From NCBI GenBank assembly GCA_964388455.1, contig CAYMAN010000005.1, forward strand, positions 2,920 through 66,919: DNA of 64,000 nt, in the 5' to 3' direction. The notes below the pieces were generated by a model. The model did not search any database. It was not told the DNA's origin and saw nothing but the letters and a program-made list of their open reading frames with translations. The stretch comes from an uncultured Eubacteriales bacterium (GTDB taxonomy: Bacteria; Actinomycetota; Coriobacteriia; Anaerosomatales; JAAXUF01). Of the stretch, positions 3,321 to 28,737 are shown piece after piece (the stretch's first letter is position 1; the number at the start of each line of letters is the position of its first letter). The position numbers and the translations under genes are program-made.

Positions 3321-3381
3321 GCTTTCCCAAACCTCCTTCACGCACTCCTAGTGCTAGTAAGACTTGCCGAGAACGAGCACG

Positions 3382-3437: not shown

Positions 3438-3570
3438 GATATCGGGACGATGGCAGAAGCACCCTGTGTAGGTTGGTAGATTGCTTCCGACTGCGCCTTG
3501 GTCCGAGTACCGGCTCCGACCTGCAAGTACACAGCTGTATGCGACTAAGAATCGCTAAAACTGGCGCCCT

Positions 3571-3628
3571 TGTAACAGGTGTTACATTGGCTCATGCCTA
3601 TGCTACCTCTGCGCCGGCATGTGGTCAA
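3571..3628 (-). promoter_or_regulatory. Sigma70-like promoter plus palindromic operator of the hydrogenase operon
   Basis: -35 TTGACC (3623-3628), 17-nt spacer, -10 TAGCAT (3600-3605). The 16-bp dyad TGTAAC-N4-GTTACA lies at 3571-3586, 13 nt downstream of the -10. Confidence 0.6.
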
Positions 3629-5220: not shown

Positions 5221-5276
5221 GTACTGCGTTCCTCCTGGATCGTCACGGCGTACGCCGCAGTGGCCATTCGAGCGGT

Positions 5277-6317
5277 TTACTTGGCTCCGAGCTCAGCCAA
5301 CATGTTCTTCAGAGCGGTGTCGTCGGGCAGGGTAGCCAGCGCGGCCTTGACCACTTTCTGGGCACCGGCTGTGTCGCCGTCGGCCTTGAGCACTTCTGCG
5401 TGGAAGATGACGGCGTCTACGTTCTCGGGGTCCAGTGCCGTCGCCAACAGCGCTGCATCGATGGCGTCCTTGAGTTGACCCGCCTTCAGCCGGGCACGAC
5501 CGTCTTCAACCGCCTGCTTCGAGGTACCAAGCTTCTTCAGCGCATCGACGGGCTGGTCCTGCTCGGGTGCCAGGTCGGCAGCCTTGCGGAGATGAATAGC
5601 GGCGTTGATCTTGTCGCCTTGATCGAGCAGGATCATCCCGTAGAGGTAGTGCGCCTCAGGATAGTTGGGATCGAACGCGAGCGCGGCGTTGAGTTGCTTG
5701 ACCGCCGCCACGTCCTCCCCCATACCGCGCAGAGACTGCGCGAGGAGGTAGTAGGTGTCCGAGGCGTCCTTGCGGATTCGCAGCGCTCCCTTGAAGTAGC
5801 CCGCGGCATCCTCGTAGCGTCGCTGACTCAGCGCGATCTCGCCCAGATGGAAGAGAGCCTGCTCGCGGCGCTCGTTCATCGCCTCGAACTGAGTCGCCTG
5901 CGTAAGCTCGACGACTTTGGTGAAGTACTTCTCGGCGGGGCCGTACTCCTTGTTTTCCATTGCGATGATGCCCAGGTCGAGGTAGGCGCCCGTGTGGTTC
6001 TTGTCGAGCTTCACTGCGATCTGGAACTGCTCGGCTGCCGGCTTGAGCTGGCCGGCTGCGGCGAGTGCCTCCCCGAATCGGACGCGTGCGGCCGCACTAT
6101 TGGGGGACTTTCTGACCACCGCCTCGATATCCTTGATCGCGCGCTGCGCGGGAGTTGCGGTGAGCTCTGCCTGCCTCCCCTGCCACACGGAATAGCCGAG
6201 AAGGGCGCCGAGGCCTATGACCGCGGACACGAGAACGATGATGACGATGCGAAGGATGCCGTCGGCGCCTTCAGGCGAGCGCTTCAATCGGCGTGTTGCA
6301 GGCGCGTTCTCACTCAT
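5277..6317 (-). CDS. Membrane-anchored TPR-repeat protein (paralog A)
   Basis: Single N-terminal TM (ILRIVIIVLVSAVIGLGALLGY) followed by tandem TPR-like helix pairs, e.g. AVKLDKNHTGAYLDLG and ALAFDPNYPEAHYLYG. ATG 6317 (SD TAAGGA) is preferred over the track TTG 6323. Confidence 0.75.
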   Translation of the reverse strand: MSENAPATRRLKRSPEGADGILRIVIIVLVSAVIGLGALLGYSVWQGRQAELTATPAQRAIKDIEAVVRKSPNSAAARVRFGEALAAAGQLKPAAEQFQIAVKLDKNHTGAYLDLGIIAMENKEYGPAEKYFTKVVELTQATQFEAMNERREQALFHLGEIALSQRRYEDAAGYFKGALRIRKDASDTYYLLAQSLRGMGEDVAAVKQLNAALAFDPNYPEAHYLYGMILLDQGDKINAAIHLRKAADLAPEQDQPVDALKKLGTSKQAVEDGRARLKAGQLKDAIDAALLATALDPENVDAVIFHAEVLKADGDTAGAQKVVKAALATLPDDTALKNMLAELGAK

Positions 6318-6455
6318 GCACAAGTCCTTACCCGTGACGTCGTACGCGCTGGAGCCTGCCGGGGCTCACATGGGGCGCGAAGACTGCTGACTGACAATAC
6401 CTGCGGTGCCAAAGTGCCGTCAACACGACGACGCCTGGCGACACGCAGGACTCAC

Positions 6456-8875: not shown

Positions 8876-10114
8876 CTACTTGTTGTGGCAGTTCTCACAC
8901 ACGCCGCGGTTGTCCATACGGAGCAGTGCCGAAGGCGTGCTGGAAACGAACGGCGGCAGGCCCGAGCCAGATGTGTCGACTGAGAAGCCGGACATCTGCG
9001 CGACCGTGCCGTGTGCCCTGTGGCACGTGAGGCACTCGACCCAGTCGGTCGCTGTCGTCGAAGGGTTGCCCTTCTCGGAGAGATTGTTCGCGACCGGAAG
9101 TGCCAGACCAGCTACGTTCAGCGGCGTGGCGGTCGAGTTGTAAGAAGCGAGCTCCACGTTGATCGGGTGCTTGTGGCGCAGCGTCAGCGCGGCCCCATCG
9201 CCAGCGTTATACGTGCTGGCGAGCGACTGGTAGACGACACCCAGGCTGCTGGTGAACTGCTCCGTCGCGTCACCGACATACGTCGAGTGACAGCCGGCGC
9301 ACCAACCGCTCATGCCCTTGTCAGGGTTCTCGACGCCCGTGGCCATGTCATAGCCCTTGGCGTACATCGGAGTGGTGTAGTTAGGCTCGTACGCGGGGTA
9401 GCCGCCAGGATTGTGAAGACGGAAGCCCTTGTCGGGCCATCCGGTCTCTACCGACGAGACGAAGCCGTCTGGCGTCGGGTCGGCCGGGGCGGTAGCGGAT
9501 GTCACGTAGCCACCGACGTAGTTGCCGTTGACGAGCGACTTCAGGATGCGGTAGTTCGAGCTGCCGTGAGGATCATGGCAGGTGGCGCAGTCCATGGCGA
9601 TCTTGTTGGACTCGCCCGCAAGGTTGCTGGTCAGAGGGTTGCCGGTTTCGGTGTAGTTACCGGTCGCACCCGCAGTGCCCTTGCCGAAGTAGCCACCGCC
9701 GTAGGCACCCCACGCGGCACCGTTGGCGATATGCCACGACGTGGTGGCACTATCATCGAAGGACTCAAAGCCACCTGCGTTGAGTATGCCCATGTTGGTA
9801 CCGTAGTCGGTTCCGTAGTACAGACCATCGCTGACGTTGGTATCCGCGCTCTGTCCAGCTGAGTCGTGACACGCGTAGCAGAACTCCTGCATTGTCGTGG
9901 CCGACGAGACCAGCAAAGCACTGTGCTCAGTCGTTCCACTCGCGTCAGTCCACGTGAGCGAACTGACAGAAGTGTGTGCACGGTGACAACCAGCGCAAGC
10001 GTCGGTGTCGTTCACGTAGTTGCCATGGATCGCGAAGTTGGCGAACGCTGCCGAGGGAACGAGGATGGCTGCGAATGCGACGATCGCGAGCAGAATCGAG
10101 AATCTCTTCGTCAT
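8876..10114 (-). CDS. Secreted hexaheme c-type cytochrome
   Basis: Signal peptide MTKRFSILLAIVAFAAILVPSAAFA. Six CxxCH motifs: CAGCH, CYACH, CATCH, CAGCH, CLTCH, CENCH. SD GGGAGGTG. Confidence 0.85.
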   Translation of the reverse strand: MTKRFSILLAIVAFAAILVPSAAFANFAIHGNYVNDTDACAGCHRAHTSVSSLTWTDASGTTEHSALLVSSATTMQEFCYACHDSAGQSADTNVSDGLYYGTDYGTNMGILNAGGFESFDDSATTSWHIANGAAWGAYGGGYFGKGTAGATGNYTETGNPLTSNLAGESNKIAMDCATCHDPHGSSNYRILKSLVNGNYVGGYVTSATAPADPTPDGFVSSVETGWPDKGFRLHNPGGYPAYEPNYTTPMYAKGYDMATGVENPDKGMSGWCAGCHSTYVGDATEQFTSSLGVVYQSLASTYNAGDGAALTLRHKHPINVELASYNSTATPLNVAGLALPVANNLSEKGNPSTTATDWVECLTCHRAHGTVAQMSGFSVDTSGSGLPPFVSSTPSALLRMDNRGVCENCHNK

Positions 10115-10119: not shown

Positions 10120-11010
10120 CTACACCTCCCCGCCGGTCACGGCGTCTGCTTCGTTCTTGGCTCTGCGTGAGGATATCGCCATCAGGCCACCGACTACAAG
10201 CGTCGGAAGCACGACGGCCTTTGCGAGCGAGCCAGTAAGCATGCCACTCACCATCGGAGCGACATGGTCCTCGATGAACGGATCCGCCTTGGGCGGAGCC
10301 AAGAGCGTCTTGCGACTCGCCCAGAACATCGAGTCACCACCGATGACGTTCACGGTGCCGTCGGCGAAGGTGTAGCCGTTGGCGGGATCCTGAACGTATG
10401 CGGCGATGTTGGCGCGAGTGTCCCACATCATGGCCTTCGCAGGACACGTTGAGACGCAGGCCGGCTCGTGAGCGCGACCGGGCGACGCAGCGATCTCGGC
10501 GGCGGTTGCACGGGTCTGCAGGGGCGGAAGGCCTGAGCCTGCCACATCCGCATCGGAACCGGCGCGACCGGCGCACAGGATGCACTTGTTCATCAGCGTG
10601 GACTCATTGCCGATGTAGGGCTTACCGATCTTGGGATAGCCGCCGCGCTGGCAGTTAACCTGGCACGGATACTGACCAAAACGGTCCTTGCACGCTGCCG
10701 GATCACAGAGGTTCGGATCCACGGCAACGGCGCCTGTACTGGGATTCCAGGTCAGGGCAGCCTTGCCGCTCGCGTCCTTGACGGGACACGCACGGGCGCA
10801 AGGAGCGTCGACGCAGTGCCAGCACGAGAACCGAATGAACGGGCCCATGTCGACACGCTTCTGGCTCTTGATCGTCACACGCTGATCATACGCAACGTTG
10901 TGAACGCCGATCGTCTCGGCGCGGATGTTCCACTCGCGCTTACAGGCAACGACACAGCCATTGCACCGCATGCACTTGTCCACATCTTGCAGAATTGCCA
11001 TCACAGTCAT
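10120..11010 (-). CDS. 4x[4Fe-4S] ferredoxin-type electron-transfer subunit (FdnH/DmsB-like) with C-terminal TM anchor
   Basis: Cys clusters CMRCNGCVVACK, CWHCVDAPCARACP, CILCAGR and CVSTCP. C-terminal helix VVLPTLVVGGLMAISS. SD GGGAGGTG. Confidence 0.85.
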   Translation of the reverse strand: MTVMAILQDVDKCMRCNGCVVACKREWNIRAETIGVHNVAYDQRVTIKSQKRVDMGPFIRFSCWHCVDAPCARACPVKDASGKAALTWNPSTGAVAVDPNLCDPAACKDRFGQYPCQVNCQRGGYPKIGKPYIGNESTLMNKCILCAGRAGSDADVAGSGLPPLQTRATAAEIAASPGRAHEPACVSTCPAKAMMWDTRANIAAYVQDPANGYTFADGTVNVIGGDSMFWASRKTLLAPPKADPFIEDHVAPMVSGMLTGSLAKAVVLPTLVVGGLMAISSRRAKNEADAVTGGEV

Positions 11011-11023: not shown

Positions 11024-14000
11024 CTACATCTTCTTGATACGGCAGAGGCAGATCTTGTACTCAGGAATCAAAGTGTTTGCATCCCAGGCATCGATGGTGA
11101 GGTCGTTTGCACGCGAGCCGGTTGAGAGGCCCTTCTCACCCCAGTGCCATGGAATCGCGACTACACCGACGCCTACACGCTGGTTGGTGCTCTGTCCAAC
11201 GCCCACCTTGGCGCGCCAGCCCGCTCCGTAAGGAAGAAGCTTCTGGTCTGCAAGGCCCTCGGTGCGCTTCGTGATGATCTGGACCAAGTCACCATCCTGG
11301 ATGCCGTGGGCACGCGCATCGATGGAGTTGAGCTCGATCCACGGCTCGGGCTCGAGCTCATGGTTGTACGCGTTGTTTCGCGTGATCGGGCCACCCTGGA
11401 AATGCTCGACGCAACGAATCGTGGTGAGCATGAGCGGGTAGGTGTCCACGGTACCGATGGGCGACCGCGCGTCTGAAGTGGTGATCAGGTTCGCGGAGGT
11501 GCCGGTTGTGCCGTTCTTGCCCCACGTGAGCGCGAGCGTAGGCTCTGGGGTCTCGTACGGCTCGGTGTGGCCGGGGAAGCGGCCGGTGAGCACGTGCGGC
11601 GCGGTCGAGCCACCGATGCTGGGCAGATCCTTGAGGTTGTGGTGCTTGCGATAGTTGTTGTTCGCATAGTCCATGAGATCCGTGCTGAGCGTCGAGAAGA
11701 GTCTCGAGACGCGGTCCGGACCCTGGAACCCGTCCATCTGATCGCCAGGAACCTCAGCTGTGGCATCGACCGCTGCATTGTTGTTGTACAGAACGCGACG
11801 GTTGACCAGCCAAGAGTAGCCCCACTTGTGGAAGCCATAGGACTTGTAGGGATCTTCCTGTGAGCGACTCTTCGAGCGATTGGCAACTGTCCATGCAGTG
11901 TAGTCGGCACCGAGACGCGACTTGTTGAGAGTAGAGCTGTACGCCTCGTGGTAGATCCAGATCGTTCCGCCACCGGCGTTTGAGACGACGGTGCACATCT
12001 GGCGATACAACTTCTCCGCGACGTACTCGGCGCCCGTCATCGCGCCCGTCTTGATGCCACCCTCGTGGGTGAATCCGGACTCGGTCGCGTCCTTGAAATC
12101 ATCGACGGTAGCCGTTGCGTTCGGCGTCCAGCCGTACTGGCGACCGAACAGTGAGTCATACACCGATACGAAGGTGCCAGGTGTCGCACCGTCCGTGCTT
12201 GCTGCGAACGCTGCGCCCTTAGTCCATCCGAGACCGCCGGATGCCTTGGCCGTGGTCCACTTGTTCTCGATGTGCGAGAACACGCTCTTCTCGTCAAGCT
12301 TCTTGGCGAGACGAAGCAGCAGCTCGAGATCGGTCTTGCTGTTGCCGCTGGGGAGTTTGGCCTGATAGCGCCACTGCAGTACGCGACCGGAGTTGGTTGC
12401 GCTACCGGCCTGCTCGACGTGCGCGGCAGCCGGAATCAGGTACGTTACTGCACCATCCTTACGCGGAATAGCGGCCGTCTCAGTCTCGAAGACATCCTGT
12501 ACGACCAACAGATCGAGGTTCTTGAGGCCGTCGCGCACCACACCCTGGTTGGGCTCGGTCACGGCCGGGTTCTGGCCAAGAATGAACGCAGCCTTCGTGC
12601 CGCCTGCGACCATCTTGCGGAACATGGAGATGTGATCATCGCCGTTACCCTTTGGCCAGAGGTCGTACACAGCGTTGACCTTCGTGCGCCTGTCGGCGAT
12701 GGCTGCCGTGGCGGCGTCATCAACGTAGTCGTCGGCACCAGCGGCGTAGTTCGGAGCGAACCACCGCATGGTCATGTTGTAGAAGCCCTTGGACTGCAGG
12801 TTCAGGGGTCCCGTGCCTACCAAGCCCCATGTGCTACGAGTGAACGCGTCATCGTACGGGTTGGTGCCCATGTTCATGCGGTTGCCCCACAGGCCGTCCA
12901 TGTACTTACCGAACGCATTGACGTCATTCTTAGTCGAGTCCGAGTGACCAGCGCTCATCACCGTCGGGTTGCCCGAGTACGCAGGGATGTTGCCGAACAG
13001 CAGACCCATATCCGTGGAGCCCTGAACGTTGTGGATTCCACGAAGGGCGTTGATTCCGCCGCCCGCACGACCCGCGTTACCCAGAATGGTCTGGAGGTTG
13101 GCGAAGCCCTTGACGTTCTGCGAGCCACACGTGTGCTGGGTGATTCCCATTGCGTAGAGAATCGTGGTCGCACGATAGCCGGATGCGTAGGGCGTCTTGA
13201 CAAGACCCGTCAGCGGATCCGCGTCGCCTGCGCCGGTGTAGCTAGCCATGCGGCTGTGCTTGATCATTTCTTCGGCAACCGCAACAAGCTCGGCCGGGGT
13301 ACACCCGCAGATATCGGCAACAGTGGCCTCGTCATACGGTGCGACCTGGGCTTTGAGCTTCTGGAAAACACTGTCCGCATCGGTGATGTCGTTCGCGGCA
13401 ACAGGAAGCGCCGTGAACTGGAATGCAGCGTCCCACCAGCCCATACCGAAGTACAGGTTTGCCAGGCTATCTGAATACCAGAGTGCCCAGCTGGTACCGA
13501 CCTGGGCGACCACTGGACGCGCGGTGCCTGCGCTGGCGGTCACGCCCGGCAAACCCTTGATGTAACCGGTCAATCCGGCAGCCACAACAGGCCGCGTGAA
13601 GGTCAGGCCATCGGCGGAAGTTGCCGTGCTGATCTTCTGGATCTGATCCGTCAAGCTGTACCCAACGTACAGGAGCTGGTATGCAGCGCCGTTCTTGACA
13701 ACCATCGGGTGCATGACGCGATAGCTATCCCAGCCAGTCGCCGCAGGTGAAAGAGCCGGTACGGGACCGCCGACGACAGCCTCGAACGAGGCGTTGAAGG
13801 TGGTTGCGTCCCAGGTACCGGGCGCGTCCGTCGTGAAGCCCTGATACAGCTTGTACTCAGCGGCTGGATTCCCACGACCCTGGAAGTAGAGGCGATATGT
13901 CGCTCCATCCTTCAGGACCATAGGACGGTCGTACTTGTAGATGGTCATGCCCGCACTGTCGGTGACAGGTGTCGTCACCGGATCGAGGATGACGGCTTCG

Positions 14001-15526
14001 GCGCCCCATGTCAGGCCATCAGCAGAGCTGCGAATGGTGAGTTTACGATCCGCATCGTTGTTGACCATGTAGTACACGCCGGACTCAAGCCAGACGAACG
14101 GTGCATCGGCGCCGTCGGAGACGTTGGTATCGACACCCGTCGTCCACGTGTTGCCGTCCTTGGAGGTCGCGAACTGGATGTTCGTCTCCGCGCCTACAGC
14201 CGAGACGTACCACATCTTGTACTTCTTGGCGGCGTCAGTCTCCGCTGCGTCAAACACAACTGTCGGTGTGTTAGCGGCATATCCGGTTGCAGCAGCCTTG
14301 TTGTAGCGCTGATAGTCGCTGCCCACCGAGTTGATCTTCAGGCGTGCATCGGTGTACTTGGAGCGATCCGCGGCCGTAGCTACGCCGCCCCTAGCACCGT
14401 CGGGGATGAACGTCTGCGTCTGCTTCTGGTTAAGGAAGGCGTCGAAGTGAGTCTTGTACTTCTCCGTTGCAGCTGCGCCGTCCGCGATGTTGTTGATGAT
14501 GTAACGAATCAGGCCGTTCTGGAACGCGATGTCTGTTCCGGGACGGATACGCACATACATGTCCGCCTGCGTCGCGGTGCGCGTCTTGCGCGGATCGATG
14601 ACGATCATCTTCGCCGCGGGCTTTGCACTTATGTCGCCGTTAGGCAGAACCTGGTTGGCGGTCTTGGCGCGGTTGATGTGCGCCATGCACGCCGGATGGT
14701 TCTCTGCCGGATTAGCTCCCCACGCGATGACAAGCGTCGAGTTCGCGATATCTGTCCAGCTGTTGGTCATTGCTCCACGTGCGAATGCGGCGGCCAGACC
14801 GGCCACCGTTGACGAGTGTCATATTCGCGCCTGATGCTCGACGTTGCTGGTACCGAAGTTCGCGATGAGTTTGCGGTACAGATAGTTGCCTTCGCTGTTC
14901 ATGTGCGAACTACCGAAGAACGCAACGCCCTTACTGTTGTAGCCGTTCGCGGCCGACGGTGCTGAAACACCGGCGCCACCAACGTTGTCACGTGCGGCCT
15001 TGAGGCCGTCTGCGATCTCATCCATCGCCTGGTCTAGCGGCATCGCCGTCCACGCGGTGTTAACGCCTGATGCAGTTCCTGTGGACTTGTACGCGACGCC
15101 GTTAGGAGCAGCCGGGTCGGCAAGGAAGGCATTGCTGCCTGCAGGGTGGTTGAGACTGCCGCCGAGCTCAGGCGAGCCAGCTTCCCACGCACCGATACGA
15201 CGAGAGTTGTTCACGAGCTGAAGAGAGCCCGCACCCTTGGAGCACAGACCGCCGGTATTGAAGACGGACTCGAAATCGCCATAGATGTCGACGACCTTGC
15301 CAGATGATTTCTCAACGACTACTCGCTGCCCGCAACTAGCGGAACAGTAAGGACAGGTGGTTGTGGTGATCGTGTAGGCGGCCATTCCCTCGTACGCCGC
15401 TGCCTTTGCAGGGTCGTATGCGAAGTTGAGACCGCAACCAACCACCGCTGTTGCAGCAGCGGATGACTTCAGAAAGTCTCTACGTGAGAGTCCTGAGGCC
15501 CCCTGCCCGGTGTCTTTAGTTGCCAT
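11024..15526 (-). CDS. Tat-exported selenocysteine-containing molybdo/tungstopterin oxidoreductase, formate dehydrogenase (FdnG)-like, 1500 aa with internal beta-propeller-like insertion
   Basis: Track ORFs 14819..15526 and 11024..14806 are in the same frame and separated only by TGA 14819-14821. The joined reading is ...NVEHQARI-U-HSSTVAGLAAAFARGAMTNSW, which matches the FdnG/FdhF Sec context. Tat signal SRRDFLKSSAAATAVVG. N-terminal FeS motif CPYCSASCG...C. C-terminal pterin-binding region ...LTTIRCVEHFQGG... Confidence 0.85.
14789..14807 (-). promoter_or_regulatory. SECIS-like hairpin 11 nt 3' of the UGA codon
   Basis: GGUGGCC-GGUCU-GGCCGCC forms a 7-bp stem with one G-U pair. The GGUCU loop resembles the E. 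coli fdhF SECIS apical loop. Confidence 0.65.
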
Positions 15527-15654
15527 ACTGCGTTCCTCTCTGATTGGCAGAGATCAGAAAAATCTCCGTGCTCCTGTGCCCTGAATGAGCGCGCATCGAT
15601 GACGTGTTTTGCCCATCCTCCTCTCGCGTGCCATCGCTGCTTACCGGGGAGCGA

Positions 15655-15705
15655 AAATGAAAAACCGGGCGCGACACAGCACTGCGCTGTGAACACACTC
15701 CGGTT
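15655..15705 (-). terminator. Terminator-like structure with U-run in the FDH-operon leader
   Basis: Outer stem AACCGG/CCGGUU encloses the inner hairpin CACAGC-GCAGU-GCUGUG. It is followed by UUUUUCAUUUU. It lies between the riboswitch-like element and the start codon. Confidence 0.4.
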
Positions 15706-15792
15706 CTAGAACCCATATTGGACAGCCCTCTTCCCTTACCCGGGGAAACACGAGCATGGGCGAGCCGTGGTGACCGGGGCTCGCCGTACTCG

Positions 15793-15893
15793 CAGTCTCC
15801 TTTCCAAGTGGGGAGGCGCCACCGTTTCCAGTGACACCCCGGCCCGACAACCATGGCGCGGATGCGCTGTAGGTCCGAAGGGCTCGGAGACTG
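15793..15893 (-). ncRNA. Moco/Tuco-riboswitch-like element in the FDH-operon leader
   Basis: An 8-bp closing stem CAGUCUCC...GGAGACUG encloses CUCCGAGCC, an internal GGAAACGG loop, GCGCCUCCCC and UUGGAAAGG. These are the conserved blocks I recall from the Moco RNA motif. A paralogous element lies at 34340-34442. Confidence 0.6.
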
Positions 15894-15948
15894 TCTTATT
15901 CGGTTGAATCAAGCACGATCTACGCGTTCACGACCCTGTGAGGTCGAG

Positions 15949-16009
15949 TTTGTAACACGTGTTACAAAGACCGCACATGTATCGTAATCCTCGCTTGCAG
16001 ACCTGTCAA
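15949..16009 (-). promoter_or_regulatory. Sigma70-like promoter plus palindromic operator of the FDH-like operon
   Basis: -35 TTGACA (16004-16009), 17-nt spacer, -10 TACGAT (15981-15986). A perfect 20-bp palindrome TTTGTAACACGTGTTACAAA lies at 15949-15968. Confidence 0.65.
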
Positions 16010-16046
16010 CGCACACGCAATCTCCACAGTGTGCGGGTAGCAGCAC

Positions 16047-17543
16047 CTAGCGTTCATTCTGCCGATCGTTTGCGCCGAAATATCGTGCAATGAACTGCTC
16101 CGCATCAAATGTGCCAATCTCCGCTAAACGCGCAAGGCGCCGGAGATCCAAATCCTCGGTGCACAGACCCCGAGCACGATCAGCAAGTGCAAGGAGAATC
16201 GCCTCGCGCTCACCGATGTCGAGCTTCTCGCGCATCGCACGCACATCGGACTCCGAGTACTCCTCGGCCTGGATAAGCGTGCCAAGATCGACGTCGCCAA
16301 CGATGCGGCCCGCGTATAGCGCGTGGTCCATCTCAGGACAGAGCAGACGCAGCTTGCGCTTGGAGGCCACTTCGGCGATCACATCGCGCTGAATGAGCAC
16401 CTCGACGAACTCCGGTGAGACGACTAGGCGGACCTTTCTGAGCATCAACGGAATCAGGAGCAGAAGGAGCGGCAGGAGACACAGCGCCCAACCCCACGGC
16501 GTGCTGGGGGTGACAACTCTCGGGATGGGAGCAACCGGCCAGCCCCATACCTGGACCTGATCGTTCTCGCGGTCGGTGACGTAAATGCGGCCGTTCTTAT
16601 CGAGCGCCACATCTGCGGGATAGTTGAACTGACTGGGACCAAATCCCTTGGAACCGAACTGAACCAGCTGCTTGCCATCGAGATCGTAGATGTCCACGAC
16701 ATGTGCGAGAGCGTCGACCGCGAACAGATGCTTGGAATCCACAGCCAGACCGCGAGGAATACCCGATGAGTCGATGATGCGGATCAATTCGCCGGTTGGC
16801 TTGAACACCTGAATGCGACGGTTGTTGGAATCCGAGACGTAGACAGCGCCGTTCTTCGCCACAGCGATACCACTTGGAAAGAAGAACTCGCTCGGCGAAT
16901 CGATCACCGAGTTGGCCTGAACTGTCTTGCCGAACGTGACCGTTCGGCTGCCCTCGGTGGAGAAGAAGATGACTCTGTGTCGGTCCGTTGCGCCGACATC
17001 AGTGACTCTCGGCGCACCTGATGTGTCAAAGGAGATTGCCAGTGGAGCCCAACTGAACTTGGGTTCACCCTCCGGCGTGAACGTCCTCAGGTACTTACCC
17101 TCGAGGTCGTAGACGTAGATGGTCCTGAAGCGGCGCTCGGTTACCCACACCTCGGAGCCCTTGATGGCGACGTTCACTGGCGAGCGAAGTCGACCCTTGC
17201 CAGTGGTGCCGAACGAGAAGAGATACCTGCCGCGCGGAGCGAACACGCTCATCCGCCGATTGCCCGCGTCAACGACGTACACGCGGCCATCCGCGCCGAT
17301 ATCGACTCCGGCAGGGCGTCTGATCTGACCCTTGCCTTCGTCTCCGGTGATGGAGAACAGATACTGCGGCGCTGTCAACGCCGCTTGTGGCTCTCCCAAC
17401 TTCACAGACGGCAGGCTCTGGTTCCTCACAAAGTAGAACGTCGCATATGAAAGCAACGCGAGCAGCAAGAGGAGCAGAGCAAGCAGGATGACACGTTTGC
17501 GCTTCTGACGACGAGTTAGAGGCTGACGCGTGCTACTTGCCAT
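16047..17543 (-). CDS. Bitopic membrane protein: TM, NHL-repeat beta-propeller, TM, PIN-like C-terminal domain (paralog B)
   Basis: Same architecture as 3718..5220. Blades include VYVVDAGNRRMSVF, VWVTERRFRTIYVY, VYVSDSNNRRIQVF and IYVTDRENDQVQVW. TM2 is ALCLLPLLLLLIPLML, followed by RK. The start overlaps the upstream TPR gene by 11 nt. Confidence 0.8.
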   Translation of the reverse strand: MASSTRQPLTRRQKRKRVILLALLLLLLALLSYATFYFVRNQSLPSVKLGEPQAALTAPQYLFSITGDEGKGQIRRPAGVDIGADGRVYVVDAGNRRMSVFAPRGRYLFSFGTTGKGRLRSPVNVAIKGSEVWVTERRFRTIYVYDLEGKYLRTFTPEGEPKFSWAPLAISFDTSGAPRVTDVGATDRHRVIFFSTEGSRTVTFGKTVQANSVIDSPSEFFFPSGIAVAKNGAVYVSDSNNRRIQVFKPTGELIRIIDSSGIPRGLAVDSKHLFAVDALAHVVDIYDLDGKQLVQFGSKGFGPSQFNYPADVALDKNGRIYVTDRENDQVQVWGWPVAPIPRVVTPSTPWGWALCLLPLLLLLIPLMLRKVRLVVSPEFVEVLIQRDVIAEVASKRKLRLLCPEMDHALYAGRIVGDVDLGTLIQAEEYSESDVRAMREKLDIGEREAILLALADRARGLCTEDLDLRRLARLAEIGTFDAEQFIARYFGANDRQNER

Positions 17544-18537
17544 TGTTCACCTTTTCCAGACCGGCCTTCGCCGACGCATTGTTGGGTTCGATCACCAGGA
17601 CGCGCTGATACATCTCTGCGGCATGCTTCTTGGCACCCGTCTTGACCGCCAGGTCGCCGAGCAGGATGAGTGCCTCGACGTTCTGTGGTTCAAGAGCCAC
17701 CGCGATGCGTGCCTCGATCAGCGCGGCTTTGGGGTCCTTGGCTGCCTTGGTCTTGGCCGCGGCGAGGCGATCACTGAAGGGCCCGAGCTCATCCAGTGCA
17801 TCCTGCGGCAAGTCCACATTGGGGGCCGCGGCGATCGACGTGCGCAGGTGTTCTGCGGCCCCGGCCTTGTCGCCGTCCTTGAGGAGGAGGAGTGCGTAGT
17901 CGTAGTTCGCCTCGGGCATCTTGGGGTCGAACAGCAGCGTGTTCTCGAGCTCCTCGCGGTACTTTGAATCAGAACCCAGCTTGCTGTAGGTGAAAGCCAA
18001 TGCATAGTGCGTGTCCGAGGCGTCGCGTCGGAGAAGAATGGCCTTCTTGTAGTAGTTCGCGGCCTCCTCGTACTCCTTCTGCTCCATGAGCGCAGTGCCC
18101 AAGTAGAAGTACGCGATCTCGAGTTGCGCATCCGGACCGCTCTTGTGCTTGGGCTCGAGTATCGCGATCACTCGGCGGAAGTACGTCTCCCCCTCGGCGA
18201 ACTGCTTGCGCTGCAGGGCGAGAAAACCGATGCCTGAGATCGCAGGCGCGAAGTCCTTGCTGATCTTGAGTGCGGCCTCGTACTGCACCACCGCGTCCTT
18301 GTCCCGACCGGCGACCGCGAGAGCCTGCGCGAGCTGCATGCGTGCGTCGATGTCATTGGGGTTCTTGCGAACCCTGGCCTCGACAGCAGCGACCGCGCGC
18401 GCAGCGGGCGTTGAGTCAACGATCTGACGGCCCTGAGCCCAGACCGAATAGCCAAGATATGCGCCAAGAACAAGCACCACAACGGCTATGGCTGCTATGA
18501 CGGCGTCAAGCGGGCGGATGTTTCTGACAGTGGACAC
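17533..18537 (-). CDS. Membrane-anchored TPR-repeat protein (paralog B)
   Basis: N-terminal TM AVIAAIAVVVLVLGAYLGY followed by TPR-like repeats, e.g. ALKISKDFAPAISGIGFLAL and TLLFDPKMPEANYDYALLLL. GTG start with SD AAGGGAG. Confidence 0.75.
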   Translation of the reverse strand: MSTVRNIRPLDAVIAAIAVVVLVLGAYLGYSVWAQGRQIVDSTPAARAVAAVEARVRKNPNDIDARMQLAQALAVAGRDKDAVVQYEAALKISKDFAPAISGIGFLALQRKQFAEGETYFRRVIAILEPKHKSGPDAQLEIAYFYLGTALMEQKEYEEAANYYKKAILLRRDASDTHYALAFTYSKLGSDSKYREELENTLLFDPKMPEANYDYALLLLKDGDKAGAAEHLRTSIAAAPNVDLPQDALDELGPFSDRLAAAKTKAAKDPKAALIEARIAVALEPQNVEALILLGDLAVKTGAKKHAAEMYQRVLVIEPNNASAKAGLEKVNNGK

Positions 18538-22658: not shown

Positions 22659-23522
22659 CTAGACCTGGTCTGCCACGGGTACCGCCGGAGCGTGCTCCAT
22701 ACCGGGAGCCTTGGCATCGTGCGCACGGTCATCGCCATGTGCGTCACCGTGATCGCCATGCTCGGCGTGGGGCCTGTCCAGAAAACCCAGACCGAAGAAG
22801 TCCAGGAACGCCGGGAGGTCCTCGGTGACTGAGAGGTACACGTGAATCGTGGTGAGAACAATGAACAGCCAGTTGATGAGGTAGTGGATGGTTCTGACCC
22901 ACCACACACCGCTGGCGCCGATGAGTCCGGCAACAAGCTGCTGGAGGCTGACATCGACGATCGGCAACATGAGTCGCCAGAGCATCAGGCCGGTGATGGC
23001 CTGTGCGATCAGCAGCGGCACGAACAGCGTGTACGTGCCCTTCTGCATGATGTTGTACTTGCCCAGGTGCGGCTTGGACGGCTTCACGAAGATGTAATAC
23101 AGAATGACCTTCGGGGCCGTGGTGAGGTCGCGCTTGCTGATGGCGAACTCGCGATAGTCACGACGGCGCGAGCCGAACGCGTACCACAGGCGCACGATCA
23201 GGTTGACGATCACGATGATCATCGCGATGTAGTGCACCCACTGCATGAACGCACGGCCACCGTTGAAGAACGGGAACCGAATGTACATGCCCGACACGCC
23301 CAGCGCGATCATGGCAGCGACGTGCTGGAAGTGCAGAAGCTTGGGAAGTGCAGGAATAGGTCCGCCTTCATGCGCAGGCCACTCCCAACCGACAAACCTT
23401 CGTTTAGCGCGACCAGTCAGGATGTTGCCGAGGAAGTGGCCTGAGAGCGCCACAACAATCACCACATAGAGCGTGGTGAACACGACATCGATCCAGACGT
23501 TAAGCTGCGTCAGTCCGATCAA
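22659..23522 (-). CDS. Integral-membrane b-type cytochrome (Ni/Fe-hydrogenase / FdnI-type cytochrome b family-like) with His/Asp-rich C-terminal tail
   Basis: Four to five TM helices carry conserved His residues (LLHFQHVAAMIAL, WVHYIAMIIV, VRTIHYLINWLFIVLTTIHVYL). Tail: RPHAEHGDHGDAHGDDRAHD. TTG start with SD GGGAGTAGGGGG. Confidence 0.65.
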   Translation of the reverse strand: MIGLTQLNVWIDVVFTTLYVVIVVALSGHFLGNILTGRAKRRFVGWEWPAHEGGPIPALPKLLHFQHVAAMIALGVSGMYIRFPFFNGGRAFMQWVHYIAMIIVIVNLIVRLWYAFGSRRRDYREFAISKRDLTTAPKVILYYIFVKPSKPHLGKYNIMQKGTYTLFVPLLIAQAITGLMLWRLMLPIVDVSLQQLVAGLIGASGVWWVRTIHYLINWLFIVLTTIHVYLSVTEDLPAFLDFFGLGFLDRPHAEHGDHGDAHGDDRAHDAKAPGMEHAPAVPVADQV

Positions 23523-23644
23523 CTGACACCCCCTACTCCCTTGTATCCGTCACCTGTCAGGTACGGCTGATGCGTAGTTAGGCACGTGCAGGCACGCAAA
23601 GTCCGCAGGCGATTACCGGCCACCGGCGGCGCAGCCCCTACGCT

Positions 23645-23693
23645 TGTAACAGCAGTTACACGCATACTAGGGTGCTGCACGACGGAGTGTCAA
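23645..23693 (-). promoter_or_regulatory. Sigma70-like promoter plus palindromic operator of the cytochrome operon
   Basis: -35 TTGACA (23688-23693), 18-nt spacer, -10 TAGTAT (23664-23669). The dyad TGTAAC-AGCA-GTTACA lies at 23645-23660, starting 3 nt after the -10. Confidence 0.6.
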
Positions 23694-23727: not shown

Positions 23728-23970
23728 TTACACGTCCTCGATTAGTCCGCGCGCGTTGATCAGGATACCCGCCGCATCGAGGTACGTGGCGGCCCGCTCT
23801 TCGTCGGCGAGTTCGAGACGCAGGGCGATGCCACACCTCGAACCGAGCGTCTTGGGTGCCGGCATCGGAACGACATCTATCCCGAGGTCACCGAGCAGCG
23901 CCTCGGCGTCGAGCGCCGCGTGCGTCGACTCGAAGCCGAATGCGGCGAACTCACGTGGGGCCCGGGTCAC
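23728..23970 (-). CDS. Small DUF3343-like putative S/Se carrier protein
   Basis: 80 aa, FGFESTHAALDAEALL...PMPAP...SRCGIALR. The GTG start overlaps the cysteine desulfurase stop as GTGA. I know this family from selenium/sulfur-mobilisation neighbourhoods; the call is by recall only. Confidence 0.5.
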   Translation of the reverse strand: MTRAPREFAAFGFESTHAALDAEALLGDLGIDVVPMPAPKTLGSRCGIALRLELADEERAATYLDAAGILINARGLIEDV

Positions 23971-25157
23971 GGCTGCTCACCCGCGAGCTCCGCGAGCGCG
24001 GACAGCGCGGCGTCCACGTCGCTGTCCGTGTTACCGAAGCCGATGCCGAACCGCAGCGCCCCAGTGTCGAGCGTGCCGAGCGTGCGGTGGGCCCACGGCG
24101 CACAATGAAGCCCGGCTCGGGCAGCGATTCCATAGCGGCGATCCAGGGCGAATGCGAGCCTGTCCGCATCGATGCGCTCATGTGTGACTGACAGCACCGG
24201 CACGCGAACCTCCGCCGGCTCAGGCCCGAGCACGCGGAACCCGCCGATGCCGAGAATCCCCTCATGGAGCCGGCGCGAGAGGCGACGCTCCTCGAGACGC
24301 TGTGCTGTGGCGTGAACGCTCAGGAAGCGTGCGGCGGCACCCAGCCCTGCGATGCCGGGAGTGTTGGGAGTCCCGGCCTCGTAGCGATCAGGTCGCGCGG
24401 CGGGCGCCCCCTCGTCCTCGCTCGAGCCGCCGCCGGTGCCGCCGAGCACCAGTGGATTGGGGTTCACATCCGGCGACAGATACAGGACGCCGACACCCTG
24501 CGGTCCGAGCAACCCTTTGTGGCCCGAGCAAGCCCAGGCATCCGCACCCAGGGTCGCGAGGTCAACGTCGATGTGTCCGCCCGCCTGCGCCCCGTCCACC
24601 AGCATCATAGCGCCGTGCGCGTGGGCGATATCCGCGAGATCCGCGACGGGCTGGATTGCGCCGGTCAGGTTGCTGGCGTGTTGACAGACAACAGCCGCAG
24701 TTCGAGCGGCGGCTACGGCGGTCTCGACCTCGTCGGGATCGACCGTGCCGGTCTCGTCGGCCTCTACGACCACGAGTTCGACGCCGAGCGCCGCCAGCGC
24801 GTAGAGCGGCCTGGCGACGGCGTTGTGCTCCATCGAGCATGCCACGACCCGGTCGCCCGGCTTGATCAGGCCACGGAGCACCATGTTCATCGCCTCGGTG
24901 CAGCCGGGCTGAAAGAGCAGATCACGCGCGTTGGGCGCGCCGAGAAGCGCTGCGATGTCACGACGGGACTCGTGGATGAGGCGCGTGGTCGCCATCGCGA
25001 GTCGGTACGCACCGCGTCCGGGATTGCCACCATAAAGCGTCAGCGCATCATGGACCGCCGACACGACCTCAGGCGGCTTGGGCCACGACGTCGCCCCGTG
25101 GTCCAGATAGATGGTCTCGGCGTTGACCGTCGTCTGGCTGTCGCGCGTGTCAGTCAC
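23967..25157 (-). CDS. Class V aminotransferase / cysteine (or selenocysteine) desulfurase family protein
   Basis: IYLDHGATSWPKP, PLP-lysine context ACSGHKGLLGPQG, and active-site Cys context AGLHCAPWAHRTLGT. Confidence 0.8.
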   Translation of the reverse strand: MTDTRDSQTTVNAETIYLDHGATSWPKPPEVVSAVHDALTLYGGNPGRGAYRLAMATTRLIHESRRDIAALLGAPNARDLLFQPGCTEAMNMVLRGLIKPGDRVVACSMEHNAVARPLYALAALGVELVVVEADETGTVDPDEVETAVAAARTAAVVCQHASNLTGAIQPVADLADIAHAHGAMMLVDGAQAGGHIDVDLATLGADAWACSGHKGLLGPQGVGVLYLSPDVNPNPLVLGGTGGGSSEDEGAPAARPDRYEAGTPNTPGIAGLGAAARFLSVHATAQRLEERRLSRRLHEGILGIGGFRVLGPEPAEVRVPVLSVTHERIDADRLAFALDRRYGIAARAGLHCAPWAHRTLGTLDTGALRFGIGFGNTDSDVDAALSALAELAGEQP

Positions 25158-25160
25158 GCG

Positions 25161-25646
25161 CTAGCCGTGCCCGCCGCCGCACACCATCTCGACCGCATGC
25201 TCGAGCTGGGGTGCGATGAAGCCGAATGACTCTCGGGCGGCCTTCTCGGAACCGGGAAGGTTGATGATGACGGTCTGGCCGCGCTGCGCGGCGGTCGCGC
25301 GCGAGAGCATGGCGCGCTTGGTGACTTTGAGTGACTCGGAGCGGAGGTACTCGGCGATGCCGGGGACGGGGCGCTCAGCGATGTCCATGGTGGCTTCGGG
25401 GGTTACGTCGCGCGGACCGAGGCCGGTGCCGCCGCACGAGAAGACGATATCGGCATCCTCGACGTCACACATCTCGGCGAGCGAGGCGGCGATACACTCA
25501 CGATCGTCGGGGCAGACGTGGTAGGCGACTACCAGCCAGCCGGCTGCCTCGGCGAGCTCGATGAGCGCGCGGCCGGCGGTGTCCTCGGCCTCACCTGCAG
25601 AACGGGTGTCGGAGCAGGTCAGGACGCCGATGCGGAGTTCTGCCAC
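25161..25646 (-). CDS. MogA/MoaB-family molybdopterin adenylyltransferase-like protein
   Basis: VAELRIGVLTCSDTRS...FSCGGTGLGPRDVTPEA...INLPGSEKAA. GTG 25646 with SD GGAAGGGGAG; the track start 25892 (Pro/Arg-rich) is rejected. Confidence 0.8.
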   Translation of the reverse strand: MAELRIGVLTCSDTRSAGEAEDTAGRALIELAEAAGWLVVAYHVCPDDRECIAASLAEMCDVEDADIVFSCGGTGLGPRDVTPEATMDIAERPVPGIAEYLRSESLKVTKRAMLSRATAAQRGQTVIINLPGSEKAARESFGFIAPQLEHAVEMVCGGGHG

Positions 25647-25650
25647 GGTG

Positions 25651-26256
25651 CTACTCCCCTTCCGGGCTTGTGGTGACGCGGTTGCAGTTCTTCTCCGAGC
25701 GGGCCTCGGCTTTGGCGGCCTCCTCGGCGGCCTCCTTGGCGCGCTCGGCTGCGAACTCGGCGATGGACTCGGGCGAGGTGCGATCGCAGGTGCCGTCGCC
25801 GATAGAGAGCGTGGTGATGGTGTCGCCGACCTCGACGTCGCCGGCCTGGCGGACCACGGCGAAGATGCCCTCGCGCGGCATGACACAGTCACCGGCCTGG
25901 TAGTAGATGGCGCACTTGGTGTGGCAGACCTTGCCGATCTGGCTGATCTCGAGAATCACCGAGTCACCGATCTGGATCTGGCTGCCCATGGGCAACGCGA
26001 GCAGGTCGATGCCGGTGGTGGTGATGTTCTCGGCGAAGTCCCCGGCGTCCACGTCGAGGCCCTTGGCCTGCATGGTGCCGATCGACTCTGCCGAGAGGAG
26101 CGAGACCTGGCGATGCCAGTCGCCCGCGTGCGCGTCGGTGTCGAATCCTCGGTCGAGGATGAGGGTGCCGCGGGTGCCGGGTGTCTTGCGCATGGTCTTC
26201 TTGGGGCTCAGGTTGACCGAGGTTACGGTGCCGGGGCCGGGCAGGGGTGCTGTCAT
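25651..26256 (-). CDS. MOSC-domain protein
   Basis: Beta-barrel MOSC-like core ...HRQVSLLSAESI...GDFAENITTTGIDL...GKVCHTKCAIY. ATG 26256 overlaps the moaC stop as TGATG. Confidence 0.65.
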   Translation of the reverse strand: MTAPLPGPGTVTSVNLSPKKTMRKTPGTRGTLILDRGFDTDAHAGDWHRQVSLLSAESIGTMQAKGLDVDAGDFAENITTTGIDLLALPMGSQIQIGDSVILEISQIGKVCHTKCAIYYQAGDCVMPREGIFAVVRQAGDVEVGDTITTLSIGDGTCDRTSPESIAEFAAERAKEAAEEAAKAEARSEKNCNRVTTSPEGE

Positions 26257-26876
26257 CAGGTGTTCTCCTCGCGGGTCCACAGGCCGGACTTGCCGCCTTC
26301 TTTGCGAAGCAGGCAGACGTCTGAGATGACCATGCCTCGGTCAACGGCCTTACACATATCGTACACGGTCAGCGCAGCGACGCTGGCTGCCGTGAGCGCT
26401 TCCATCTCGATGCCGGTCTTGCCGTCGACTTCGACGGTGGCCGTGATGCGGATTCCGGTGCGCGCGCTGAGTGCCGGGCCGTTCGACGGCGCGGGAACGG
26501 CGGAACGCTCCGGCACGAGCTCGACGGCAGCGTGGGTGATGTTGAGCGGGTGGCACATCGGGATGAGCTCGGCGGTGCGCTTGGCGGCCATGATGCCGGC
26601 GATGCGCGCCGTGGCGAGCACGTCGCCTTTGGGTGCCGAGCCGGTCACGATCATCTCGAGGGTGGCAGGTGCCATCGCGATGAAAGCGCCGGCGACGGCC
26701 ACGCGATGGGTGACGGGCTTGTCGGCGACGTCGACCATACGTGCGGCGCCCGTGGCGTCCAAGTGCGTGAGTGCGCCCGGCGCGACGTGGACGGCGGGGT
26801 GCTGCGGGGTGTCGGGCGCGGCGGTGGGGGTGTCGGGTGTGCCCGTGGGGGGCGTGTCGGGGGTCTCGGCGGGCAT
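26256..26876 (-). CDS. moaC: Cyclic pyranopterin monophosphate synthase MoaC with Pro/Thr-rich N-terminal repeat
   Basis: [16 protein letters not shown]...[29 protein letters not shown]...[23 protein letters not shown]. Confidence 0.9.
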
Positions 26877-26879
26877 GGG

Positions 26880-27913
26880 TCAGCCTCCGATCTGGGACAT
26901 GCGACGGTCGGTTCCGACGCGGTCCTGGTGGTTTTCGGGCTTGTCGTGCAGGCTCTGGCGGATGACGGCGCGGATGTCGTCGTCGGTGCCGGAGCGGAGT
27001 ACAGAGCGCACGTCGAGTTCTGCGTCCGAGAAGAGACACGGACGCAGGCGACCGTCGGCGGTGAGTCTCAGGCGGTTGCATTCACTGCAGAAGTGGTGCG
27101 ACAGCGGCGAGATGACGCCGATGGTCCCGGGCGCGCCGGAGAAGCGGTAGTACTTCGCGGGTCCCCAACCGCCCGGTGCCGAGTCGCGCTCGACGGCGAC
27201 GAGCTCGCCGAGACCGGCAGCGACACCCTCGGCTGAGATGCGGGCGATGACCTCGTCGGACGGCATGGTGTCGTCGCGCGTCCAGCCGTCGGTCTCTACG
27301 CCGCCGTCGGAGTGGCAACCCGCGCCCTCCTCGGCGATTCCGACGGGCATGTACTCGATGAAGCGTACGTGCAGCGGACGATCGAGCGTGAGCTTCGCGA
27401 AGCCGAGCAGGTCCTGCTGAAGCGAGCGGACCACGACGACGTTGAGCTTGATGGGCTTGAAGCCGACGTCGAAGGCCGCGTCGATGCCGGCGAGTGCGTC
27501 GGCGAGCTTGCCTCCGCGGGTGATGCGCTCGTAGACGTCGGGGTCAAGCGAGTCGAGGCTGATGTTGACGCGCTCGAGGCCGGCGTCGCGCAGATCGTGC
27601 GCGAACTTGGGCAGCAGCGTGGCGTTGGTAGTCAACGCGATGGACTCGAGGCCGGTGATGGCGCGGAGGCGACGCACGTGGTCGACGACACCGTGTCGGA
27701 CCAGCGGCTCGCCGCCGGTGAGGCGGATCTTGCCGATGCCTTCACCCACGGCGATTCCGGCGAAGCGTTCGATCTCCTCGAGGGAGAGCATCTCGTCATG
27801 CGGCTTGAAGGCTACGCCCTCGGCGGGCATGCAGTAGACGCATCGCAGGTTGCAGCGATCTGTCAAGGAGATGCGGAGGTAGTCTATGCGGCGACCGAAT
27901 GTGTCTGTGGCCA
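26880..27913 (-). CDS. moaA: GTP 3',8-cyclase MoaA (radical SAM)
   Basis: DTFGRRIDYLRISLTDRCNLRCVYCMP, and C-terminal CSECNRLRLTADGRLRPCL. GTG 27913 follows the mobB TAG directly, with SD GGAGGAG. Confidence 0.9.
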
Positions 27914-28519: not shown

Positions 28520-28737
28520 TAGAAGCAGCCGAGATCGCAGTTGTGGACGCGCACTCCGGCCATATCCGCGGCGGTACCGGCGACCTTGTACGGGATGCCG
28601 GTGTCCTCGGCGAACTTGCGAAGCACAGGGCATGTGACCTTTTCGTCGACGGACTTGGCCTTGATGGCGTCCATCATTTCAGGTGTGACCTGCTCGACCC
28701 AGCGGGGATCGTGTGTCTTGGGACCCTTGTCGCTCAT
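28519..28737 (-). CDS. Small conserved-looking protein of unknown function, C-terminal HNCDLGCF
   Basis: 72 aa, translationally coupled on both sides (ATGA with moeA, TAGTG with mobB). Codon usage looks coding. I recognise no family. Confidence 0.5.
   Translation of the reverse strand: MSDKGPKTHDPRWVEQVTPEMMDAIKAKSVDEKVTCPVLRKFAEDTGIPYKVAGTAADMAGVRVHNCDLGCF

Follow-up and report, generated by a model that had tools for sequence, protein, structure and literature searches.

What does an aptamer for a molybdenum- or tungsten-type cofactor do in front of a gene whose product uses such a cofactor, and in which direction does it switch that gene? The question is raised by a 64,000-nucleotide (nt) stretch of DNA from an uncultured Eubacteriales bacterium (assembly GCA_964388455.1, contig CAYMAN010000005.1, positions 2,920 to 66,919; hereafter the window), in which the leader of a selenocysteine-containing formate dehydrogenase (Sec-FDH) operon carries an element resembling the Moco RNA motif. 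This motif is named for the molybdenum cofactor (Moco), and one of its subclasses is linked to the tungsten cofactor (Tuco). The formate dehydrogenase (FDH) is a molybdopterin-family enzyme, that is, a cofactor-using gene lies downstream of the element. We consider the element almost certainly a genuine aptamer of Moco RNA family RF01055. Behind it lies a conserved leader that would let bound cofactor switch the operon on, and as an explanation of the locus as a whole we give this reading an even chance. Coordinates of all features are collected in Table 1.

Aptamer identity and fold

The window was scanned whole against Rfam 15, and three matches reached the gathering threshold: two copies of RF01055 and a tRNA-Sec gene. 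A local RF01055 search of the FDH leader gave E 2.6e-15, and a permissive Rfam scan of 15450-16060, with E values up to 1, returned no family besides RF01055. A first-pass annotation, made by reading the sequence without database searches, had described a Moco/Tuco-like aptamer in the FDH leader, with an 8-bp stem closing about 100 nt and a related element before the tungstate-uptake gene tupA. The covariance model bears out both: the FDH copy scores well above the family threshold, and the second match lies before tupA. Stem P1 comprises 8 base pairs between CAGUCUCC (15893-15886) and GGAGACUG (15800-15793) on the minus strand and encloses a 101-nt element, in which the conserved blocks listed in that annotation (CUCCGAGCC, GGAAACGG, GCGCCUCCCC and UUGGAAAGG) are all found. 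The range it gave, 15759-15893, is right in containing the aptamer and too wide as its extent, since the aptamer proper occupies 15793-15893 and the rest is the inner part of a separate hairpin, H1.

Folded alone, the 101-nt element adopts a four-stem P1/P2/P4/P5 shape (-52 kcal/mol, z -3.8), and the minimum free energy (MFE) structure of 15793-15893 is the RF01055 family architecture. The junction nucleotides CUCCGAGCC, GCCUCCC and UGGAAAGGAG lie in the multistem P1/P2/P4/P5 junction and are invariant in 21 leaders. In both window copies the P4 loop is GAAA (GGAAAC) and the P2 bulge is CCUA...AUGG, aligned to the receptor positions of the model, and the two may form a tetraloop/receptor-like pair. 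Both window copies, like all six orthologues described below, have the model positions of P3 deleted, and P2 is joined to P4 by 0-4 nt. The presence or absence of P3, which the first-pass annotation had proposed as the means of telling the Moco and Tuco classes apart, places the element by its sequence in the P3-lacking subclass tied to the tungsten cofactor, its predicted ligand (PMC2408646). The aptamer itself therefore belongs to an already known family and shows no difference from the Moco RNA motif; it is the leader behind it that is less ordinary.

Relatives and the conserved leader

A protein-based scan of one genome per species yielded six orthologous FDH loci, about 50% identical, from metagenome-assembled genomes labelled Actinomycetota, Coriobacteriia or 'Eubacteriales'. 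All six leaders contain a P3-less RF01055 match (58.3-72.8 bits), and the distance from the end of the aptamer to the FDH start is 250-269 nt in every one of them, compared with 255 nt in the window. Further leaders were fished from metagenomes with a DNA pattern built from the leader, its D block (see below) included. The pattern matched 26 stretches, of which 16 carried the aptamer signature, and an FDH N-terminus stood at the expected distance in 14 of these 16; the other 10 matches had no aptamer and were discarded as chance. The resulting set of 23 leaders comprises the window and the six orthologues, making seven selected by protein, together with the 16 from metagenomes (individual leaders are cited by L numbers).

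RNAalifold, run on a MAFFT alignment of 21 leaders that was not fitted to structure, recovers P1, P2, P4, P5 and a terminator stem. Compensatory changes occur in 18 of the 42 consensus pairs of the aptamer and terminator, distributed over P1 (2 pairs), P2 (4 or more), P4 (4) and the terminator stem. The stems, whose conservation in related genomes the first-pass annotation had left to be established, are thus conserved. The order of parts is constant across the 23 leaders: aptamer, H1, a pyrimidine run C, block D, a partly conserved AUAUG(U/G)GUUCU, a terminator with its U-tract, about 130 nt of further leader and the FDH start. The constant spacing between aptamer and FDH among the orthologues, together with a C/D segment whose pairing depends on the state of the aptamer, argues for a function in cis, and the aptamer very probably acts as a cis-regulator of the Sec-FDH operon through this conserved leader of about 270 nt.

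Expression platform

Two structures downstream of the aptamer had been pointed out in the first-pass annotation as possible expression platforms, an 8-bp hairpin (15759-15785) and a U-tract terminator-like structure (15655-15705). Both are real: the former is the inner stem of the longer H1 (15793-15750), and the latter is a 43-nt hairpin followed by a U-tract (UUUUUCAUUUUC / UUUCAUUUUC). Both also belong to the conserved platform, in roles more specific than had been foreseen, the inner hairpin of H1 being, in our folding models, the apical part of an anti-aptamer helix and the terminator being crossed by a candidate reading frame. A hairpin occupies the H1 position in all 21 leaders folded; its sequences are unrelated and its shape is conserved.

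Between H1 and the terminator, C and D are together complementary to the 3' third of the aptamer (UCCC..UUGG..GGAGAC). Block D follows the pattern GGGUA(A/G)GG(G)AGG and reads as an extended Shine-Dalgarno (SD) sequence, UAAGG(G)AGG; it is UAAGGGAGG in most leaders and exactly UAAGGAGG in three, and GGGUA(A/G)GG is present in all seven leaders chosen by protein alone. The anti-aptamer helix is the MFE structure of 15722-15812, at -44.4 kcal/mol. With folding unconstrained, the probability of P1 is about 0 in 22 of the 23 leaders and D pairs with the aptamer. In this P1-open state C pairs with GGAGAC/GGAAAG and D with CCUCCC, forming one long helix capped by H1. When P1 is enforced, D is left free, is weakly paired with C or pairs downstream.

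A comparable terminator hairpin with a U-rich tail is present in all 23 leaders; a simple terminator scan had missed the one in the window because its stem has internal mismatches. It lies about 87 nt beyond P1, with two elements between, and shares no sequence with the aptamer. When either terminator arm was compared by RNAduplex with everything upstream, the best partners fell at inconsistent positions among leaders, and the pairings of the terminator arms are identical whether P1 is enforced or not, in truncated and full-length folds alike. The models thus contain no conserved antiterminator that shares sequence with both the aptamer and a terminator arm. An apparent resemblance of the terminator arms to P4 was dropped as it holds in the window's clade only.

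Three other routes from aptamer to gene were rejected. Direct control of the FDH start gained no support, as the accessibility of the FDH ribosome-binding site in whole-leader folds is much the same (0.44 versus 0.45) whether P1 is enforced or blocked at its 5' strand. A long-range helix between the AUAUGUGUUCU block and that site can be drawn by eye, yet it involves purine and pyrimidine runs that pair in many registers. Pairing of the H1 loop CCGGCA with the terminator, or with GCCG of the aptamer, amounts to only 4-5 bp and is inconsistent. The region from the terminator to the FDH start (15527-15650, minus strand) contains GCUCCC, G(A/G)AAGGAGG and GGGAGC, conserved in most leaders. Since GCUCCC is complementary to GGGAGC and to D, a further structured domain or second switch may exist there; the region matched no Rfam family.

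Proposed polarity and a candidate upstream reading frame

The direction of switching was modelled as the free-energy cost of making the upstream ribosome-binding site single-stranded in a nascent RNA whose 3' end is 15 nt beyond the upstream ATG; the model is thermodynamic, constrains only P1 and ignores folding kinetics and aptamer tertiary structure. The mean opening cost is 12.8 kcal/mol when folding is unconstrained and 9.6 kcal/mol when P1 is enforced. The cost is more than 1 kcal/mol higher in the P1-open state in 20 of the 23 leaders, and the reverse is never seen. Because opening is cheaper with P1 enforced, ligand binding should expose the upstream ribosome-binding site. A ribosome that starts 11 nt ahead of the terminator would sit over the base of the 5' arm, so the model favours ON polarity.

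We propose the following sequence of events. Without ligand, C would displace the 3' strand of P1, and the CCUCCC of the aptamer would hold the UAAGGGAGG-like D block. Binding of the cofactor would lock P1 and release D. Freed, D could act as a ribosome-binding site for a small upstream frame, which starts with an ATG 3-14 nt ahead of the terminator, and a ribosome loaded there would cover the 5' arm of the terminator and allow RNA polymerase to read through. In the window's clade, where the stop of the frame falls 8 nt into the FDH gene, the same ribosome could then restart at the FDH ATG. The net effect would be that apo-enzyme is made when cofactor is present (ON), with the tupA copy shutting off tungstate uptake and cofactor synthesis (OFF).

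The upstream frame has several features that fit such a role. In the window its ATG lies 11 nt before the terminator, and the frame crosses the terminator to a stop 8 nt downstream of the A in the FDH ATG. In 21 of the 23 leaders an ATG follows D at a distance of 7-13 nt, ahead of the terminator, and L031 has TTG. The start precedes the first paired base of the terminator by 3-14 nt in 21 of the 23, by exactly 11 nt in nine, and in 21 leaders the frame continues without a stop beyond the U-tract. A frame of 66-68 codons is found in ten leaders from four to five lineages (L013, L016, L031, L025, L001, L008, L002, L005, L034 and the window). All ten stop with UAA or UAG at +8 of the FDH gene, their ATG-to-ATG distances are 190, 193 or 196 nt, and their insertions and deletions are multiples of 3. 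Over these roughly 190 nt the long frames contain zero stops, against means of 1.4-1.6 in the two alternative frames, just 2 of 18 of which are open. In L034, a 96%-identical contig, a CG-to-TA change yields TAG in another frame and leucine in the upstream one.

On these folds the balance for ON polarity of the FDH riboswitch is about even. That a ribosome on the upstream frame provides the read-out we suggest tentatively, and the full proposal, a Moco/Tuco-family riboswitch that its cofactor activates through a relay of three steps (SD release, block of termination by the leader-frame ribosome, restart in FDH), is possible and somewhat doubtful. The broader idea put forward by the first-pass annotation, that cofactor availability gates synthesis of the apo-enzyme, is plausible and consistent with the folding-based ON polarity.

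Points against the proposed switch

Several observations weigh against this reading. Ligand binding and regulation are predictions from sequence and folding, and the sequence of this FDH does not reveal its metal. Because both cofactors are so unstable, standard binding assays are out of reach for Moco and Tuco, so that direct binding is unshown even for the founding member of the family, and the assignment of the P3-less subclass to Tuco is a correlation (PMC2408646). The conservation of D is visible in the seven protein-selected leaders only, since D was used as bait for the 16 from metagenomes. Its pairing with CCUCCC offers no covariation because both blocks are invariant, and even with ligand bound, D could form a hairpin with C, though one no better than shuffles (-5.8 kcal/mol, z -0.4).

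The upstream frame has weaknesses of its own. The spacing from GGAGG to ATG, at 7-13 nt, is rather long; L019 is without a start codon, and the frame of L024 stops within the terminator. Spanning the terminator is weak evidence alone, since 75% of all frames stay open across it. The frame does not behave as a conserved peptide, a candidate role that we rejected because neither third-position nor synonymous changes are in excess. Differences between the window and L016 are spread evenly over the codon positions (9/11/15), and 18 nonsynonymous against 8 synonymous codon changes give no sign of purifying selection on the peptide. The exact peptide is absent from a collection of 15 billion proteins, and no gene is called at the frame in L034. 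If the frame matters, then only the act of translating it does. Moreover, tight coupling of ribosome and polymerase is not universal among Gram-positive bacteria.

Alternative explanations

The strongest alternative, though an unlikely one, is a conventional OFF switch, in which the ligand-bound state promotes termination or sequesters the upstream ribosome-binding site in a C:D pairing, with free RNA allowing read-through. FDH would then be repressed at plentiful cofactor, as the tupA copy is predicted to be. Precedent is on its side: all experimentally supported Moco examples repress (E. coli moaA, PMC2408646), the terminator-type Tuco leaders of fetABC1 and focA in Eubacterium limosum rose under tungsten limitation (PMC11725836), and in the present set a C:D hairpin is predicted with P1 enforced in about half of the leaders. 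However, that hairpin, already weak in energy, is absent in several clades (L018, L023, L024), the terminator forms in both modelled states, neither of its arms has a conserved antiterminator partner and the opening costs of the ribosome-binding site run the other way. Physiologically, too, it would make little sense to shut down an enzyme just when the cofactor on which it depends is at hand.

The proposed ON switch could instead work through RNA only, with the open frame incidental. Here the released D would pair with a GUUCUUC-like pyrimidine run abutting the terminator, and the resulting hairpin, 0-2 nt upstream, would hinder folding of the terminator in the polymerase exit channel with no ribosome involved. 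A hairpin ending 0-2 nt before the terminator is indeed predicted in roughly half of the leaders, D pairs downstream only with P1 enforced (0.2-0.5 of D, against about 0 in the free state), and structures placed 0-4 nt upstream suppress termination, with natural ZTP examples (bioRxiv 10.64898/2026.06.17.733018). We nevertheless regard this route as improbable. The pyrimidine run is missing in L003, L009, L018, L019, L023 and L024, the predicted hairpins are weak beside a strong terminator (about -25 kcal/mol), and small upstream hairpins have little effect on strong terminators (bioRxiv 10.64898/2026.06.17.733018). It also leaves unexplained the conserved ATG and a frame that stays open to +8 of FDH.

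Least probable of all is a largely constitutive attenuator, in which the main product of the promoter-aptamer-terminator unit is a short, stable RNA that binds the cofactor and FDH is expressed through leak-through, a downstream promoter or a palindrome-binding factor, for although the terminator forms in both modelled states and about 130 nt of further conserved leader follow it, such a unit accounts neither for the constant spacing to FDH in all orthologues nor for the state-dependent C/D segment, and a consensus scan found no promoter-like site between the terminator and the FDH start.

The second aptamer copy and its significance

The copy before tupA is likewise P3-less, and its GGAAAGGGG (34351-34343, minus strand) comprises the 3' core and a P1 strand. 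The same GGAAAGGGG is the ribosome-binding site of tupA, 6 nt ahead of its ATG (34336-34334). With the ribosome-binding site inside P1, closure of P1 would hide it, which gives OFF logic for tupA as in E. coli moaA. From its sequence, this copy is predicted to be an OFF switch for tungstate uptake and cofactor synthesis. The operon behind it comprises tupA, tupB, tupC, a mobA/fdhD fusion, moeA, mobB, moaA, moaC and a moaB/mogA-like gene, and tungstate uptake, pterin synthesis, cofactor maturation and the FDH sulfurtransferase may therefore be under one cofactor sensor. The first product is a TupA-type tungstate-binding protein (E 3.2e-61), with a score of 207 bits that falls below the 400-bit cut-off of NCBIfam, and TupB- and WtpC-like partners adjoin the aptamer copy, marking tungsten metabolism in the operon. 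A tupABC operon with the second copy fits the assignment of the P3-less element to the tungsten cofactor.

The surroundings of this copy hold further genes. The same-strand run (23967-34446, minus strand) also includes a gene resembling cysteine desulfurase/selenocysteine lyase. Directly upstream of the tupA riboswitch is a LysR regulator (34850-35740, minus strand) near the NCBIfam 'selenium metabolism-associated' type, at E 1.2e-69 and 234.7 bits, just under the 250-bit cut-off. The tRNA-Sec gene lies 16 kb from the tupA riboswitch. Selenium, tungsten and respiration genes are clustered in the window.

The aptamer can be annotated with standard tools, and what it adds is an association with a Sec-FDH gene in uncultured Actinomycetota-like anaerobes. 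In one genome the same sensor occurs twice with apparently opposite wiring, such that cofactor would turn uptake and synthesis off and a cofactor-dependent enzyme on. If true, the supply of a scarce metal cofactor and the demand for it would be joined in one compact circuit. Should the leader-frame read-out hold as well, a translational riboswitch would drive an intrinsic terminator with which it shares no sequence, and the locus would allow transcription-translation coupling to be studied in a natural setting beyond the model organisms. The 23 aligned leaders supply ready mutational predictions.

Promoter-like site, probable operator and the FDH operon

Upstream of the aptamer, a promoter-like site matches 10 of 12 consensus positions (1 site, against 0.1 expected in shuffles), and transcription would start near 15974. 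The palindrome that follows its -10 box is kept in five of seven orthologous FDH leaders, L003 and L004 having unrelated small hairpins instead. In the form TTGTAAC-N4-GTTACAA it occurs four times in the window against 0.30 expected, with sites upstream of a NiFeSe-hydrogenase small-subunit gene (1968-3341, minus strand), the Sec-FDH operon and a cytochrome b/multihaem cytochrome operon (22659-23522, minus strand). It is a DNA motif separate from the riboswitch, recurring at two other promoters of the window. By its sequence, the palindrome in the FDH leader is probably a transcription-factor operator, and it looks like the operator of a single regulator for hydrogen and formate respiration genes.

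The FDH alpha gene has an in-frame TGA for selenocysteine at 14819-14821. An insertion of about 375 amino acids (about 13217-14341, minus strand) accounts for the length of its product; it carries the repeated W/Y-rich motifs AKKYKMWY, VYYMVNND and YFGMGWWD, is conserved in all six orthologues and matched nothing significantly in Pfam and no sequence in the PDB. The opening codons of the FDH gene (15526-15505, minus strand; ATGGCAACTA[AG][AG]GACACCGGGCAG) are conserved as nucleotides at the same place in L001-L005, whose proteins are about 50-65% identical. They use ACU and AAA/AGA/AGG in a leader of about 55% G+C and keep UAA/UAG in the +2 frame, the stop of the long upstream frame. As these bases are also kept in clades where the upstream frame ends earlier, another cause is possible, for example an A/U-rich initiation region. 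Two similar pairs of genes for an NHL-repeat ScyF-like protein and a TPR protein (3718-6323 and 16047-18537, minus strand) lie beside multihaem cytochrome genes, and one of the pairs is directly upstream of the FDH promoter.

Table 1. Features of the FDH leader, its operon and related sites in the window
Feature	Position	Strand	Details
RF01055 match (Molybdenum/Tungsten riboswitch aptamer), FDH leader	15781-15900	-	64.8 bits, gathering threshold 36, E 2.7e-13
RF01055 match, second copy	34328-34446	-	54.0 bits, Rfam 15
tRNA-Sec	50461-50553	-	72.8 bits, Rfam 15
Moco/Tuco-family aptamer, P1 to P1, without P3	15793-15893	-	Rfam alignment, MFE fold and compensatory changes
Hairpin H1	15750-15793	-	-25.8 kcal/mol, z -4.8; abuts P1; inner 8-bp stem 15785-15759
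Switching segment C/D	15726-15749	-	C = GUUUCC (15749-15744); D = GGGUAAGGGAAGAGGG (15741-15726)
Candidate upstream frame, 66 codons	15516-15716	-	ATG 15716-15714; TAA 15518-15516; inferred only
Intrinsic terminator	15653-15705	-	43-nt hairpin 15705-15663, -25.2 kcal/mol, z -6.0, then U-tract
Promoter-like site TTGACA, 17-nt spacer, TACGAT	15981-16009	-	consensus match only
Perfect palindrome TTTGTAAC-ACGT-GTTACAAA	15950-15969	.	directly after -10 box
TTGTAAC-N4-GTTACAA sites	3570-3587, 15950-15967, 23644-23661; weaker 1872-1889		
Tat-signal formate dehydrogenase alpha subunit, ~1500 amino acids	11024-15526	-	regulated gene
4Fe-4S subunit	10120-11010	-	downstream of FDH alpha
Multihaem cytochrome c	8876-10114	-	downstream of 4Fe-4S subunit

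Comparison with known systems

Regulski et al. (2008) described two structural classes of the Moco motif, with and without P3, and linked the P3-less class to tungsten metabolism; the motif uses both terminator platforms and platforms with the SD sequence in P1, even within one genome, and also precedes cofactor-using enzymes (PMC2408646). The FDH element matches the Tuco subclass of that motif in its P1/P2/P4/P5 stems, junction bases, GAAA loop, CCUA/AUGG bulge and lack of P3, and the window likewise combines a terminator after the FDH copy with a ribosome-binding site in P1 of the tupA copy (PMC2408646). The FDH leader departs from the published description of the motif in that its terminator lies far past P1, behind two intervening elements and free of overlap with the aptamer (PMC2408646).

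In the anaerobe Eubacterium limosum, P3-less Tuco riboswitches precede wor1, tupABC, iron transporters and focA (PMC11725836). As in the window, a P3-less RF01055 element stands before tupABC and before the operon of another cofactor enzyme, there a tungsten-type oxidoreductase, and both platform types occur (PMC11725836). Unlike the window, the FDH of E. limosum has no riboswitch, and the platforms proposed there are sequestor/antisequestor pairs for the ribosome-binding site or a terminator directly after the aptamer, with no upstream frame described (PMC11725836). So-called tug-of-war riboswitches resemble the FDH leader in that aptamer and terminator share no sequence and in their ON polarity, here a predicted one; they need, however, a ligand-stabilised structure 0-4 nt before the terminator, whereas the aptamer here ends about 87 nt upstream of it, leaving a small secondary hairpin as the one candidate for that role (bioRxiv 10.64898/2026.06.17.733018).

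A search of the literature on the Moco/Tuco family did not find a platform that combines a distant, non-overlapping terminator with a ribosome-binding site and a terminator-crossing frame. We know of no description, in this family, of ON polarity or of a leader-frame read-out. The E. coli moaA Moco riboswitch is like the tupA copy in that the ribosome-binding site lies within P1 and ligand represses translation; as to differences, the E. coli RNA has P3 and ignores the tungsten cofactor, and the FDH copy has no start codon near P1.

The closest parallels for the proposed read-out are the pyrBI and ampC leaders of E. coli, attenuators with a leader open reading frame in which a ribosome prevents the terminator from folding. 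Leaders of this type sense polymerase pausing or ribosome abundance, and the sequence of the peptide is unimportant. The FDH leader is like them in that the ribosome-binding site of its frame lies just upstream of an intrinsic terminator that the frame crosses. Unlike them, by this analogy, it would leave the decision on access to the leader ribosome-binding site to a metabolite-binding aptamer.

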